From the UHGV virus genome UHGV-0179848: 39,611 nucleotides of DNA, one strand, 5' to 3'. Within the stretch, counting starts at the first letter, position 1. Every line of letters begins with the position of its first letter. A program made the position numbers and the translations under genes. Source of the stretch: a virus. Positions 32,931-38,560 of the stretch are shown in pieces. The notes beneath the pieces were generated by a model, which was not told where the DNA came from, did no database searches, and saw only the letters and a list, made by a program, of their open reading frames with translations.

Positions 32931-33473
32931 TTATTCCTCCGTCAGCGCCACATATTCAGAATGTTTAATCTCCTGGCATTCTTCAGGAATACCCCCTTTT
33001 ATTTCCCTGCCATAAGCGCCTACTTTAAACACCACGCACAGGGCATCACGGGAGAGCGACGGGGTCCACCAGGAGTCCATGTTAAACATGGAGGGGATTC
33101 TCATTACCCCCAGCTTTTCACAGAGCCAGACAAGGAAATCAGGACGCTTTCTTAACTCGCGTTCAGCGGCTTCAATCATTGCGGCAATCGCCGGTCCTTC
33201 AGGGCATGACTCATCAGGTCTGGCAATAAAGCACGGTCCGTCCCCGATAAAAGCCACATCATCGCGCTTACGCCAGCCCGCAGGCAGAGTACCAGAAAAA
33301 TAAAACTCACTGATTACGTCCATGGCAAACGGCTTTAAGCGCAATCCGGCAGCGCCTGTATTTTTCAGTAACGCCCGAAGAATACTGTTGCGTAGCGGTA
33401 AAACAGTCTGTTGATATTTGGTGAAATATTTATTTGTCTGCACACGGTCTAATTTGAAATAAAAATATGCCAT
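32931..33473 (-). CDS. Hypothetical early protein (180 aa)
   Basis: ORF in early operon. Confidence 0.45.
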   Translation of the reverse strand: MAYFYFKLDRVQTNKYFTKYQQTVLPLRNSILRALLKNTGAAGLRLKPFAMDVISEFYFSGTLPAGWRKRDDVAFIGDGPCFIARPDESCPEGPAIAAMIEAAERELRKRPDFLVWLCEKLGVMRIPSMFNMDSWWTPSLSRDALCVVFKVGAYGREIKGGIPEECQEIKHSEYVALTEE

Positions 33474-33570
33474 ATATCCTGTTCCTTATTTTCAGTTTAC
33501 AGGCGCAGGCAGTCCCCTGACGCGAGCGCCATACTTAAAACGATGTGATATTTAAAGATTTAATGCGGTG

Positions 33571-34101
33571 TTATTTATTCAGTCCGGCGTCCTGTTCAAA
33601 AGGCTCGACATAAAAACTTTCAGCGCCTTTATTCACCTTAATACCGGCAATGCCTTTCACTGCATCCGGCTCCGCCAGGACCGCTTCCTTGTTCACTTCC
33701 TCTTTCGTGCGGATGAATCGCTCAAGCCCCATACGGCGCAGCATTTCAATCACACCTTCCACATCACGACTGACGCTGCATGATGGATTCCCCAGTCGCC
33801 ATGACACCGTTCCGGTGGTCAGATTGGCAGTTTTGGTTTTGCCGCCGTTCGTCAGCTCATCACGGTTGGTTTTGCACCAGTCCTGAATCCCCTTAAAAAG
33901 CACTTTGATTTCTTTTTTAAGGTTTTCAATCTGCGGCGTATAACGGGCGGTGATTTCTGCCACTTCATCATTCATCGCTGTTTCCAGGCGCAGCGCCTCT
34001 CGCTGAATATCGCCCAGGGTGCGGATATCGCGGCTGACCTCTTCACGGGTCTGCGGTGCCGCCTCTGCTGCGGCCTTTAATTTTGTAACGCGTTTTGCCA
34101 T
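33571..34101 (-). CDS. gam: Gam host-nuclease inhibitor (Ku-like DNA end-binding)
   Basis: MAKRVTKLKAAAEA...LGDIQREALRLETAMNDEVAEIT...CKTNRDELTNGGKTKTANLTTGTVSWR is collinear with Mu Gam. Confidence 0.9.
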   Translation of the reverse strand: MAKRVTKLKAAAEAAPQTREEVSRDIRTLGDIQREALRLETAMNDEVAEITARYTPQIENLKKEIKVLFKGIQDWCKTNRDELTNGGKTKTANLTTGTVSWRLGNPSCSVSRDVEGVIEMLRRMGLERFIRTKEEVNKEAVLAEPDAVKGIAGIKVNKGAESFYVEPFEQDAGLNK

Positions 34102-34112
34102 TTTGTTTTTCC

Positions 34113-34433
34113 TTATTGCAATGTATCTGGTCCGTTCTGAACAGAACGGCGTTCAACGGAGCTGCTTACCCCCATGGCCTGCATGGAACCCTGTAGTTCA
34201 TCTGTCAGAAACTGAATGATTGTGGGGCTGTGATATTTAAGAATTTGTGCATAAACATCACAGGGTCCTGCCGGTCTGTTCTCTGTATCACGTTCGATTT
34301 TTACCGTGGCAGTAACCCCCTCCGTGATTTCCTCACTATCATTACCGGCTGGCTTTACTTCATGCATTACGTGGTCAAATTCAAAAATAACGCGTACTTT
34401 GCTCATGGAATTACCCCTGTTGATTAAATTCAT
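34113..34433 (-). CDS. Small early protein, paralogue A
   Basis: MSKVRVIFEFDHVMHEVKPAGN... paralogous to the adjacent 34411-34683 product. Confidence 0.5.
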   Translation of the reverse strand: MNLINRGNSMSKVRVIFEFDHVMHEVKPAGNDSEEITEGVTATVKIERDTENRPAGPCDVYAQILKYHSPTIIQFLTDELQGSMQAMGVSSSVERRSVQNGPDTLQ

Positions 34434-34683
34434 TACCTTTAATAACCCCGGAACGCATGCTCATATCTTTCATGAGCGCACTGGCTTTCATTGCCACAAG
34501 TTCAGCAAAGTCTCTGCTTTCCGCGAGCATAACCACCCCAAAAATCATGGCAGGTCCATCACCTTTCTGCTTTATCCCGGTTGAACGTATGTCCAGACTT
34601 ATCCCCATGCGCACTGTTCCATCCGCGTTTTTATGGATAACGTGCTCCTTGTATTCGAAAATAATGCGTACGACTTTACTCAT
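34411..34683 (-). CDS. Small early protein, paralogue B
   Basis: MSKVVRIIFEYKEHVIHKNADG... paralogous to 34113-34433. Confidence 0.5.
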   Translation of the reverse strand: MSKVVRIIFEYKEHVIHKNADGTVRMGISLDIRSTGIKQKGDGPAMIFGVVMLAESRDFAELVAMKASALMKDMSMRSGVIKGNEFNQQG

Positions 34684-34961
34684 CCTCTGGTCCTCGTTCT
34701 GTTTGGATAACTGACCCGGCGTCTGACCTCACGGCAGAACCGAATCATGGCATTAAAGGCTTCTTCCTCCGTCACCGCTTCCGGTATCCCCGGAACCAGT
34801 AACTGCTCCTGTTCACCACGTCCATGACGCGCCATAACCTCAATCACATGCCGTACTGTGGCAGGCTTTCCGGCAACTATCGGCAATGCACCTTCCGGCA
34901 GGACGTAACCCAGTTCAATGAGACCGCTCGACCACGCCCACGCAATTAGATTTCGTTTCAC
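34680..34961 (-). CDS. Hypothetical early protein (93 aa)
   Basis: ORF coupled to neighbours in the semi-essential early region. Confidence 0.4.
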   Translation of the reverse strand: MKRNLIAWAWSSGLIELGYVLPEGALPIVAGKPATVRHVIEVMARHGRGEQEQLLVPGIPEAVTEEEAFNAMIRFCREVRRRVSYPNRTRTRG

Positions 34962-34962
34962 C

Positions 34963-35217
34963 TCACTCCTCCCAGTAAACCGTGCAGCCGCTGATGCGGG
35001 TAGCCTTCACACGGCGGCGCAGGCCGTTGGTCTGTATGGTGATTTCAATTTCACCGGTTCCCTTAACTTCGCTTACCGGCGGCGTGGTTTTCAGGGCATA
35101 ACGTTGTGGGTAGCGTTTGCTGCGTTCCAGTACCGCACCGGCAAGTTCAGTCAGACGGCGTGCACTGTTCAGGGAGTCGAATAAATTCATTTTTTTACCG
35201 CAGGATTGCATATTCAT
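34963..35217 (-). CDS. Hypothetical early protein (84 aa)
   Basis: ORF in early region. Confidence 0.4.
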   Translation of the reverse strand: MNMQSCGKKMNLFDSLNSARRLTELAGAVLERSKRYPQRYALKTTPPVSEVKGTGEIEITIQTNGLRRRVKATRISGCTVYWEE

Positions 35218-35229
35218 ATAACACCTCGT

Positions 35230-35457
35230 TTATCTGACTTGTTTTGCACCAACAGAACGGCATATTCCCCTGTAAACTTCTGTCGCACCTTCGCGATCAA
35301 GTCCGGCAGATATCACCATTCGTGTGCGGTCATTAAATTCAAAAAGTAAATCACCACATTCTTTATTTTCGGCCAGTGAAATCACCTTCACGTTATCGAA
35401 ATTCACCAGGTAAAAGCGTCCGTAAATATCCGGAATATTAAATACCGCCATAATCAC
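35230..35457 (-). CDS. Hypothetical early protein (75 aa) in the Mu kil position
   Basis: Immediately downstream of B, overlapping stop/start; function not inferable. Confidence 0.4.
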   Translation of the reverse strand: MIMAVFNIPDIYGRFYLVNFDNVKVISLAENKECGDLLFEFNDRTRMVISAGLDREGATEVYRGICRSVGAKQVR

Positions 35458-36395
35458 ACCTGTGAGAGTAATTCAGGGTTGGTATAAACCTCTTTAAAGG
35501 CCGCATTAATATGTTTTTCTGTCAGCACAGCGCCTTCACCACTGGCGGTGATCCACGCCTGGTTAAGCGTATGCGTCAGAACACGTAATGCTCCCGGTTT
35601 TTCAGCGATAGCCTGCATGACGGCCAGCTCGGCCTCACCACTGATCCCCCATGCCCTGGCAATGGCCAGCACATCCGCCTTTTTGGCCTTGCGAAGTTGT
35701 TTTGTACGGGCAAGACGGCTGAACAGGCGCGATAAATCATCAACGGCGCGGCGTCCACCTTTAAACAGTCCGCGCGGGTTACCAATAAGCACCATCCCGA
35801 TCCCCGTGGCGTCCTGGATTGCCCTGAGTTGCTCCAGACCGTCAATACCAAGATGATCCGCCTCATCAACAATCACCAGTCCACGCGTTCCCATCAGGCG
35901 ACGGCGGATTGCGCGGGATAATGCCCCTTTGTTCGCGCGGGTGTAATCAATCCCCAGTTCCTCTGCCAGCTCCAGCAGACACTCCGTGACGCTGGAATGC
36001 GCAGGCGACAGGGTGATCATCCAGGTGTTCGGTTGCTCCTGACAGTAATTACGGGCTGTGGCCGTTTTACCCACACCCGGTACGCCCACAATGACGTTAA
36101 TACAGCCCATCAGGCGAACCGCCTGAAACAGTGCGCGCAGCTCCTGGACTGTCTGCGTTTCAACAAACTGCGGCGGCTCGGGCAGTGCGCTTTGTTTATT
36201 CCAGTTCTCATACCAGGAACGCAGGGAAGCAGCCACAGCAGCGTTATCGCCTTTATATTTCCCCTTACGGAAAGCCGATAATGTGCCGTCGGAAATTCCC
36301 GCCTCTCTGGCGATGGCATACTGCGTCAGTACGCCGCCATCAATAAGTTCATCAATGGTCTTGATTACATCGTTAATATCGGTCATATTATTCAC
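35454..36395 (-). CDS. B: MuB-like transposition ATPase (target DNA activator)
   Basis: 313 aa; Walker A GVPGVGKT; collinear similarity to Mu B (LPEPPQFVETQTV, VIVDEADHLG, KKADV..IA.AW.I.GE, KPGALR). Confidence 0.9.
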   Translation of the reverse strand: MNNMTDINDVIKTIDELIDGGVLTQYAIAREAGISDGTLSAFRKGKYKGDNAAVAASLRSWYENWNKQSALPEPPQFVETQTVQELRALFQAVRLMGCINVIVGVPGVGKTATARNYCQEQPNTWMITLSPAHSSVTECLLELAEELGIDYTRANKGALSRAIRRRLMGTRGLVIVDEADHLGIDGLEQLRAIQDATGIGMVLIGNPRGLFKGGRRAVDDLSRLFSRLARTKQLRKAKKADVLAIARAWGISGEAELAVMQAIAEKPGALRVLTHTLNQAWITASGEGAVLTEKHINAAFKEVYTNPELLSQV

Positions 36396-36469: not shown

Positions 36470-38560
36470 TCAGGCCAGCGGATCATTTTCTTTTAATTTC
36501 GCTTCGAGCAGTTGCAAACCCCGCTGGAAATTACGCTCGTATTCTTCGTCAGGTTCATCGTCAGCGACTGGTTGCTGAACGGTCACCGTATTACCCACAG
36601 GGCGGTATATGTTTTCCAGCCATGGCTCCTGCGGCTTGTGCTCCAGCACGTTGACAACCTCATCCTCGGCATCACGGATTTTTTCCTCTGCGCGTTTACG
36701 CATACCTTTAAGGCGCTGCTGCTGTTTGTAGTATTCCGCGCTGACAGGGAAGGCTTCGCGTTTATTGCCGTCCCATACCGCCTCGCAAATCACGCTGCCA
36801 TCCGGGCGGCGTACGGTAATTCGTTCGGCATCATGAATGTCATAGCTGATAAGCACTTTGCGGCCATGTTCATCACGCAGCTCGGGCGCGTAGTAAATAT
36901 TATTCAGCCAGCGTATTTCACAGCGTCTTACAGGGCGTTCCACCATCGGCCGGAACATGTCCCGCAATTCCACATCGGACAGCCATTCAATTTCCGTGTC
37001 CTCTTCCGCCAGGCGTTTTTTTCTGAACTCCGCCGGGCTGTAATGTTTACCGTTCGGCTTTATGGGTAATTCATCGTGCGGCCGGTTGTTGTACCACTCA
37101 ACGCCGTCACGAATGGCATCAATCAGTTCAGACCAGGACGGTAAATCACGCATCGCTGACTGCTGCCGGGCGTTCAGCCGCTTGCCCTGTTGCAGGGCAC
37201 TGAATGCCGAGCGTAAATCGCGGTTGGTTTTACGTAACGTCTCGCGATCTGCACCTTTCCCGAAATAGGTGCGGTATTTACGGGCTATGCGCATCGGTAA
37301 TGTGCGGTTAAGCCGTTCGATAATGCCCCGTCCCTGCGGATTACCGGCAATCCCGGTCGGGTGATTAATCCCCAGTCGCGGTAGTATCCCCACAACCTCC
37401 TTATCCAGGATGTCGGCCGTTTCCCCCGAGCCATTATCCGAGTAATACAGAAACGGTTTGCCGTGATGGCGAATGCCGTGCTGTATGGCACCGGCTACGG
37501 CGAAAACATTTTCAGCCAGGTCAAGGCTCCAGCCCACCACAAAGCGCGTGCCACCGTCGATAACAAAGGTCACTTCCGGTGCAAATGGTCGCCCGTGAAC
37601 CGGGTGCGCACATTTCAGCTTCATGCCGTGACCGTCACCAATCCAGACATAATTCACCGGCATTCTGGACCAGTCGCGGCGCGTGAATCCCTCAAGCTGG
37701 CGGTATTCACTGCCGGTCACCCGGCCTTTTTGTTTCACCACTTCCGGCAGTTTCTTCATCGCGCGGCGAATGGTGTCATAAGAGGGCATGATATCGAGCA
37801 TATAAGGCTCATCAGCGTGCCGGTGCTGCCATTCGGCGACAAAATCCTCGTAAGCCTCGGTCATTGGTCGGCCGTTTGACTGGCGATACTGCGCCAGAAA
37901 CTCGGGCAACCAGCTAATATCTTCGGCTTTTATTTCCTGACGTTTACCCGGTGCCAGTAAAAGTAGGCGTTCAGCGGCGTTCTGCGCCTTGTTAAAGGCC
38001 GCAATCCAGCGTTTCAGCGTGATTTCACTCAACGCGCGGCTGTTTCCCTTTTTGGCGTTCGCCGTTTCAACCATTGCCACAATGCGTTCGTCCAGTTGCG
38101 AGCGTGACAGACGGTCAACAATAAACCGGATAGCTTTAGCGCAGCTGAAACCGGGTTGTTGCGCGAATTTAAGCACCTCGCTGACAATCGCAATTCGTGC
38201 ATCGGCCACCTGGCGCTGTTTTTCAGTCAGTGCATTGATACGTTCGACCATCAGTTGGGGTGATCCGCGATATGCCTCCACCGCATCAACCACGGCAGGT
38301 GAGCGTCTGGCCTTTGTCACCACCGGAACCGGTGACTCATCGGCTTTTTGCGCCATCAGTTGCAGGGCGTAGCGTTCACGTAATGCCTGCTGCGTCACTT
38401 CAGGTAAACAGTCGATGCTGTATTCAGTTGCTTTAGATCCTGAGCGACGACGGGAACAACAGCTTTTCCCTTGTGCGTAACGTTGTAATGCCTGGCGAAT
38501 ACCTTTTGTAGTTGCAGGCATTCCGGGCGCACCAATCAGTTCTTTTGCAATGAAATACAT
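36470..38560 (-). CDS. A: MuA-like DDE transposase
   Basis: 696 aa; N-terminal DNA-binding domain resembling MuA domain I (KELIGAPGMPATTKGI versus Mu KECANLPGLPKTSAGV); size and position as Mu A. Confidence 0.95.
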   Translation of the reverse strand: MYFIAKELIGAPGMPATTKGIRQALQRYAQGKSCCSRRRSGSKATEYSIDCLPEVTQQALRERYALQLMAQKADESPVPVVTKARRSPAVVDAVEAYRGSPQLMVERINALTEKQRQVADARIAIVSEVLKFAQQPGFSCAKAIRFIVDRLSRSQLDERIVAMVETANAKKGNSRALSEITLKRWIAAFNKAQNAAERLLLLAPGKRQEIKAEDISWLPEFLAQYRQSNGRPMTEAYEDFVAEWQHRHADEPYMLDIMPSYDTIRRAMKKLPEVVKQKGRVTGSEYRQLEGFTRRDWSRMPVNYVWIGDGHGMKLKCAHPVHGRPFAPEVTFVIDGGTRFVVGWSLDLAENVFAVAGAIQHGIRHHGKPFLYYSDNGSGETADILDKEVVGILPRLGINHPTGIAGNPQGRGIIERLNRTLPMRIARKYRTYFGKGADRETLRKTNRDLRSAFSALQQGKRLNARQQSAMRDLPSWSELIDAIRDGVEWYNNRPHDELPIKPNGKHYSPAEFRKKRLAEEDTEIEWLSDVELRDMFRPMVERPVRRCEIRWLNNIYYAPELRDEHGRKVLISYDIHDAERITVRRPDGSVICEAVWDGNKREAFPVSAEYYKQQQRLKGMRKRAEEKIRDAEDEVVNVLEHKPQEPWLENIYRPVGNTVTVQQPVADDEPDEEYERNFQRGLQLLEAKLKENDPLA

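Follow-up and report, generated by a model that had tools for sequence, protein, structure and literature searches.

A pair of diverged small genes of D108 gene 7 kinship in a Mu-type Escherichia coli prophage

Immediately upstream of gam in a Mu-type prophage, two adjacent small genes, here called ORF97 and ORF90 after the lengths of their products, begin almost alike and then differ. Does this resemblance reflect common descent along the whole of both proteins, a short module placed in front of unrelated genes, or chance, and is the diversity of the two genes that of a recent arms race or of older exchange? A preliminary description, made from the letters of the viral genome UHGV-0179848, had proposed a local duplication in the early region and likened the pair to diversifying small proteins that often target variable host factors.

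Gene order around the pair

The window, that is, the whole stretch of 39,611 nucleotides analysed, is a Mu-type transposable E. coli prophage whose early operon lies on the minus strand. The region containing the pair is 100% identical to NZ_CP075697.1 (STEC2018-607), and relatives of the prophage are present in ~230 complete genomes of E. coli, with STEC strains frequent among them. By description, the window prophage resembles Sp18 of O157 Sakai, which is the best known of its type and is described as intact and Mu-like (PMC2669165).

All features located here are on the minus strand. Read in the coding direction, the ORF list and RefSeq give a MuA-like transposase (36470-38560) and a MuB-like AAA ATPase (35454-36395), the presence of which identifies the locus as a Mu early operon; a Phage-MuB_C domain is recorded for the MuB homologue in one related prophage (L024). 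Directly after B comes a 75-aa gene (35230-35457; phrog_3375), followed by a Kil-like 84-aa gene (34963-35217; phrog_2679, E 1.7e-43) and, upstream of ORF90, by a 93-aa gene (34680-34961; phrog_1518). ORF90 occupies positions 34411-34683 (90 aa; RefSeq WP_000049430.1; phrog_4107, E 2.1e-61) and ORF97 positions 34113-34406 (97 aa; RefSeq WP_023982865.1; phrog_2230, E 3.6e-35), and the gene for the Mu Gam-like DNA end-protection protein (33571-34101; Pfam PF07352, E 1.5e-41) lies immediately downstream of ORF97. The coordinates and N-terminal sequences of the two adjacent reading frames had been given correctly in the preliminary description, and its placement of them in the early region also holds, as they share the strand of the A, B, 75-aa, Kil-like and 93-aa genes, lie downstream of all five and immediately precede Gam.

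The genes are closely packed. Stop and start codons overlap (ATGA) where the 93-aa gene meets ORF90, which suggests translational coupling of the two, judging from the sequence of the junction. In two related prophages (L014 and L017), ORF90 starts with GTG instead of ATG, at the same place in an ATGA/GTGA overlap. A mechanical call of ORF97 runs to an upstream ATG at 34433 and yields 106 aa; the MSKV start was taken because of the RefSeq annotation in NZ_CP075697.1 and a Shine-Dalgarno-like AGGGG motif (34414-34418) inside the last codons of ORF90. With this start, ORF97 begins 4 nt past the ORF90 stop codon and 7 nt after the AGGGG motif.

No promoter-like sites were detected in the scanned B-to-Gam stretch (33400-35600), nor any terminator-like sites on the minus strand of the same interval, where such sites were seen on the opposite strand only, and an Rfam scan of the whole window returned no match. 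Both genes share the strand of A and B and follow them, alongside kil and gam, and this gene order, together with the lack of internal promoter- or terminator-like signals, places them in the semi-essential early (SE) region of Mu, their early expression being deduced from position. What the genes of the semi-essential region do is for the most part not known (PMC3820752).

Some side observations concern the neighbouring genes and the genomic setting of such prophages. PHROGs and some RefSeq records label the family of the 93-aa gene 'host nuclease inhibitor'. The gene is absent from several related prophages (L006, L007, L008 and L024), and a remnant of ~74 nt of its 3' end then precedes ORF90 or ORF97, which some gene callers read as an in-frame N-terminal extension (MKLLHGSALSSG...). 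Mu-like prophages of this kind also sit inside Stx1a- and Stx2c-converting prophages, as seen in LC727881.1 and LC727895.1, where the annotation reads 'region of the inserted Bacteriophage Mu-like phage'.

Family membership and kinship of the two proteins

The match of ORF97 to phrog_2230 extends from residue 3 to residue 97 and covers profile positions 1-88 of 89. The same profile matches gp7 of phage D108 (E 4.5e-40), gp7 of Mu_3F6 (E 6.1e-36), a Citrobacter copy (E 1.2e-26) and the second allele of ORF97 described below (class B; E 2.1e-40), and it also covers, at full length, the genes at the same position in PhiR68_1 and in the Yersinia phages vB_YpM_5/6. A comparison of gene orders placed the gene between Kil and Gam in a Mu-type early operon. 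ORF97 is thus assigned, from profile and position, to the D108 gene 7 family (phrog_2230). Like ORF97, the gp7 proteins of D108, Mu_3F6, PhiR68_1 and the Yersinia phages are acidic proteins of 89-97 aa encoded between Kil and Gam, and they have in common with it an N-terminal (K)V.VIFEF strand and a central GP..(Y/L).A.I....(S/A)P.II motif, although ORF97 is only ~30% identical to the D108-type proteins. The genes intervening between Kil and Gam differ between the window and the D108-type phages: in Muvirus phages a single copy is separated from Gam by gp8 and gp9, whereas in the window the two copies directly adjoin Gam and no gp8 or gp9 homologue is present.

The status of phage Mu itself is less clear. 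Mu gp7 (E6; phrog_10252), a protein of the same length (87 aa) encoded at the locus of D108 gene 7 and annotated, like phrog_2230, without a function, begins with MAKVI and ends in H, as do the D108 and Mu_3F6 proteins, and it aligns co-linearly over ~68 columns, but it is devoid of the GP..YA motif. Almost the whole of it matches phrog_2230, at E 0.009. Against the ORF97 and ORF90 proteins, however, no similarity in sequence could be demonstrated: hhalign gave a probability of 6.5% (p 0.0056), and E 0.11-0.43 in other runs, and the HMM score of 1.9 bits falls within the range of shuffled sequences. To judge from these alignments, Mu gp7 may be either an allele that has diverged very far or an unrelated gene that has taken its place at the locus. 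ORF7 has been reported to be <50% identical between SfMu/Mu and D108 (PMC4406740), which marks the gene 7 locus as a known variable spot in Muvirus.

ORF90 gave no match to phrog_2230 at E<=1, and phrog_4107 was its sole PHROG match. Its kinship with ORF97 is visible only by a custom HMM and by hhalign, so that it is better regarded as a superfamily relative than as a member of phrog_2230. A direct BLASTP comparison aligns 86 aa of the two proteins at 23% identity (E 1e-5), and their full local alignment score of 60 was reached by none of 5000 shuffles (mean 24.3, sd 4.3). The preliminary description had named an alignment confined to a few chance residues as the outcome that would overturn it, and these values speak for a genuine relationship. 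Most of the pairwise signal is at the start of the proteins: the N-terminal 17-18 residues alone have a score that 0/5000 shuffles reach, while the remainder without this segment is matched or exceeded by 387/5000 (p ~0.08) and is not significant alone. At the DNA level, the 5' 50 nt of the two genes are ~80% identical and the rest is not alignable. The earlier wording of a related N-terminus followed by divergence is accurate for such pairwise comparisons.

Profile methods extend the relationship beyond the N-terminus. Word-index searches returned close relatives only for each protein, mostly from E. coli, and an exhaustive HMMER scan of 1.84 billion representatives with a joint profile added seven distant proteins (P0074, P0076-P0080 and P0082). 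These bridging proteins have 90-98 aa, start with MSNK.QVIFTFE or MAKVIFEF and carry a central GP..YA.IL...P.II.FL motif; one of them, P0074, has in common with ORF90 the pattern 'GISV.V.S.G....GP' beyond the N-terminus. The hhalign probability between ORF97 and ORF90 rose from 65% with the shallow families to 92.6% (E 4.7e-7, 82 columns) with the bridging homologues and to 95% (E 4.1e-8) when the gp7 proteins of D108 and Mu_3F6 were also added, though with families as shallow as these two (Neff 1.4-3.6) the statistics of profiles have their limits. When all ORF90-type sequences were left out of the HMM, ORF90 still scored 23.5 bits, whereas the best of 2000 shuffled sequences reached 11.8. 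This HMM matched ORF97 and ORF90 alone in all six frames of the window, and in six-frame scans of Mu and of a Citrobacter locus it found the expected genes only.

The AlphaFold2 model of ORF97 (pLDDT 74) has strands at residues 3-21, 24-40 and 49-56, a helix at 61-78 and a further strand at 81-86. That of ORF90 shows the same order of elements, at positions matching under the hhalign alignment, but it is of low confidence (pLDDT 48.5), so that a common fold is indicated by secondary-structure order and profile alignment only. The fold predicted for both proteins is a sheet of three strands with a helix after it, and the structure prediction proposed earlier as a check bears out the order of elements, albeit with the uncertainty attached to the ORF90 model. 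Both proteins are of ~10 kDa. ORF97-type proteins and the single-copy relatives are acidic (pI 4.8-6.0; ORF97 4.9) and ORF90-type proteins basic (pI ~9.4; ORF90 9.45), and no membrane-spanning segments were predicted in proteins of either type.

It is concluded that ORF97 and ORF90 are full-length, ancient tandem paralogues. The low identity of 23% and the saturation of synonymous sites indicate that the duplication is old, so that the local duplication proposed in the preliminary description is upheld as regards tandem paralogy and abandoned as regards the recent origin that it implied. Gene conversion was considered as a source of the common 5' ends and is not favoured, given the synonymous codon differences between them and the conservation of the motif at the protein level in distant genera.

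ORF97 was present in every related prophage examined, and ORF90-type genes were seen only in E. coli prophages. The relatives with a single copy, namely Citrobacter braakii (L003), D108, Mu_3F6 and E. coli M3 (L008), all have an acidic, ORF97-type gene. Since the gene is of the ORF97 type wherever there is one copy, and since it occurs in all related prophages examined, ORF97 is the ancestral copy. A scan of contigs with a profile of the distant subgroup yielded one locus, in Citrobacter braakii, from a taxonomic range that is poorly sampled. Among E. coli, 220 of 233 matching records (219 genomes) cover at least 80% of a query that reaches from Gam to the 75-aa gene and includes both ORFs.

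Allele classes, recombination and selection

The window was compared with 15 related E. coli prophage loci, in which ORF97 and gam were covered in 15 of 15, ORF90 in 13, kil and the 75-aa gene in 11 and the full-length 93-aa gene in nine. ORF97 occurs in two allele classes that are ~58% identical as proteins and ~64% in DNA, embedded in flanks that are 98-100% identical, with breaks at about codon 10 and in the last codons; the break points were also aligned against LC727881. Class A, to which the window belongs, is the minority (roughly 34 of 230 records, as estimated from identity bands), and class B is common. The contrast is well illustrated by the window and L014, which have 99.1% nucleotide identity in gam, 98.2% in ORF90 and 100% in the first 27 nt of ORF97, but 64.3% in the ORF97 body (codons 10-94). 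This conserved 5' end of ORF97 (34380-34406), encoding MSKVRVIFE, forms the left mosaic break point. For ORF90, three or more classes can be told apart, with protein identities of ~80% and, for the third class, only 54%; an identical 5' end of ~40 nt, MSKVVRIIFEYKE (34644-34683), is common to them. The classes of the two genes, those of ORF90 being numbered I to III, were found in the combinations I+A, I+B, II+A, II+B and III+B, and the reading frames stay open across alleles that are 64% identical in DNA.

Substitution rates were estimated by the Nei-Gojobori method from 5-14 distinct sequences per gene (11 per ORF), as gene-wide averages that ignore recombination. Mean dN/dS is 0.32 for ORF97 and 0.30 for ORF90, compared with 0.19 for kil, 0.15 for the 93-aa gene and 0.11 for gam. 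The mean nucleotide difference amounts to 0.18 in ORF97 and 0.07 in ORF90 and to 0.02-0.05 in the 93-aa gene, kil and gam. The two ORF97 classes are separated by a dN of 0.32 and a dS of 0.9-1.2. Both ORFs are real genes under purifying but relaxed selection: at a gene-wide dN/dS of ~0.3, positive selection is not indicated. The dN/dS comparison across related prophages that the preliminary description called for thus puts both genes above their neighbours but well short of a ratio >1, and of the diversification it supposed, the unusual variability between prophages is confirmed and positive selection is not. Gene-wide averages may leave room for positive selection at individual sites.

Taken together, each gene is a recombination cassette in which conserved 5' (27-40 nt) and 3' ends surround a strongly diverged body, and the diversity of the pair reflects old allelic lineages swapped by recombination at the conserved gene ends. 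The 75-aa gene is a second variable spot and also has two allele classes (window versus L013, dN 0.15 and dS 0.56).

Possible role, alternatives and known kind

Searches for a function were negative. Pfam, NCBIfam and PDB sequences, searched with the family profile, contained no meaningful match for ORF97 or ORF90; no family of the PADLOC-DB anti-phage defence models matched at E<=1; and Foldseek with the ORF97 model gave best E values of 0.045 in BFVD and 0.29 in PDB, none significant. The literature searched contained no functional study on Mu gp7/E6, D108 gene 7 or Sp18 genes. Two candidates were considered and rejected. An RNase H-like fold, to which the weak top Foldseek hits belonged (RNase H, poxvirus resolvase, Transib), reached TM scores of 0.3-0.4 with an rmsd >11 A, and family members do not conserve the acidic residue that follows the FEF motif. 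RraB (PF06877) was hit by D108 gp7 only, at 16.9 bits against a cutoff of 23.3, and by 0/14 family members at E<=10, which is attributed to chance.

The explanation proposed here, and considered probable, is that ORF97 and ORF90 are anciently diverged paralogues of the D108 gene 7 family which act as variable cassettes of the early operon and are presumably accessory binders. Most likely they are small cytoplasmic partner-binding proteins without catalytic signatures. Both would be made early after induction, from the Pe early transcript, and would act stoichiometrically by binding a host or phage macromolecule, in non-essential accessory roles, for instance in host takeover, exclusion or counter-defence. 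Specificity would reside in the variable bodies of the two proteins, and the invariant N-terminal strand would serve the fold or a common contact. A more daring version, to be taken as a long shot, supposes that the single-copy gp7-like ancestor was a homodimeric inhibitor of a host factor, possibly a defence component, which in Sp18-like E. coli prophages was duplicated into an acidic and a basic paralogue with exchangeable, deeply diverged bodies that provide combinatorial specificities. If true, the Mu early operon would contain a modular locus for counter-defence or host takeover, built on a constant N-terminal scaffold strand.

Other explanations have to be set against the proposed one. 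Should only the N-terminal 10-18 residues be common, the genes would be chimeras, unrelated to each other and joined to the same recombination linker or translation-initiation module. The weak C-terminal similarity (p ~0.08 alone), 5' ends ~80% identical in DNA beside bodies that are not alignable, allele break points exactly at the end of the conserved 5' segment and the assignment of ORF97 and ORF90 to separate PHROGs families would all fit such a linker. It is nonetheless quite unlikely, as the profile-profile alignment runs over 78-82 columns (92.6-95%) with high column confidence through the GP...helix region, bridging proteins such as P0074 match ORF90 past the N-terminus ('GISV.V.S.G....GP'), and strand and helix boundaries in the models coincide under the hhalign alignment; moreover, distant genera preserve the N-terminal motif in their proteins but encode it with different codons, which argues for constraint at the protein level. 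Chance similarity, or reading frames that are not genes at all, might be suspected from the shortness of both ORFs and from antisense ORFs of 65-92 aa that overlap the region, but its likelihood is practically negligible in view of the shuffling results (0/5000), a dN/dS of ~0.3 in the annotated frames, frames open across 64%-identical alleles, strong full-length PHROG matches, and homologues at the same position in Citrobacter and Muvirus phages.

The remaining two alternatives accept the kinship. A recent duplication under positive diversifying selection in a host arms race, the model implied by the preliminary description, would account for the two genes being far more variable than their neighbours and for a dN/dS two to three times that of the flanks. 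Against it stand ratios of ~0.3 that do not exceed 1, a dS of 0.9-1.2 between the ORF97 classes, which denotes old lineages and not fast recent change, the mere 23% identity of the paralogues and the occurrence of ORF97-type single copies in distant genera, while the sharp break points and the free re-assortment of alleles are those of recombinational exchange; this model is considered highly unlikely. It is also unlikely, though slightly less so than a linker, that the products form an acidic/basic heterodimer which arose from a homodimeric single-copy ancestor and works as one unit. The opposite net charges (pI 4.8-6.0 versus 9.4), the tight adjacency and probable co-translation of the genes and the retention of the N-terminal strand in both proteins are what a heterodimer would lead one to expect. 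However, the allele classes occur in all combinations, so that no co-variation is seen, and ORF97 is found naturally without ORF90 or with ORF90 disrupted; free re-assortment and the ORF97-only prophages thus speak against an obligate co-evolving pair.

Mosaic accessory cassettes of temperate phages, that is, hypervariable early or 'moron-like' genes with conserved boundary sequences, are a well-known phenomenon, and the two anciently diverged paralogues are hypervariable accessory cassettes of this known type within a phage early operon, with typical mosaicism. As in other mosaic cassettes, identity drops abruptly at the gene borders, backbones that are nearly identical carry deeply diverged alleles, each gene re-assorts its alleles independently, and some relatives can dispense with the genes. 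Two features set them apart: the boundary lies within the coding sequence, in the first 9-13 codons, and coincides with the signature motif of the family, and, unlike classical morons, ORF97 and ORF90 have no promoter or terminator of their own that could be found. The finding leaves current views unchanged. What is new is the union of phrog_2230 and phrog_4107 in one superfamily, possibly with phrog_10252 as a third member, and the recognition of the locus as the most variable spot of the early operon, across Mu-type phages and ~230 E. coli genomes, under purifying selection. The locus is a reasonable candidate for a strain-specific host-interaction function.

Natural variants with a single copy or a disrupted gene can be used for comparison. 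In E. coli M3 (L008; NZ_CP010183.1, 1743-2110), both the 93-aa gene and ORF90 are absent and an ORF90-type leader is joined straight to the ORF97 start codon, an arrangement that fits either an unequal crossover between the homologous 5' ends or the ancestral state. In L009 (NZ_AP045822.1, 3337-5750), the IS66-family element ISEc22 is inserted inside ORF90, of which only about the last 40 nt are left, and ORF97 and Gam are intact. Loss of the ORF90 stop codon in L013 (NZ_CP023061.1, 911-1213) results in a 100-aa product that overlaps the ORF97 start, and a cluster of such 100-aa proteins exists (P0013). Finally, the Citrobacter braakii locus (L003; NZ_NAEW01000001.1, 4303-4941) has a DUF3164 protein (PF11363, E 6e-79) in the position of Gam, its neighbours being otherwise ordered as in the window.
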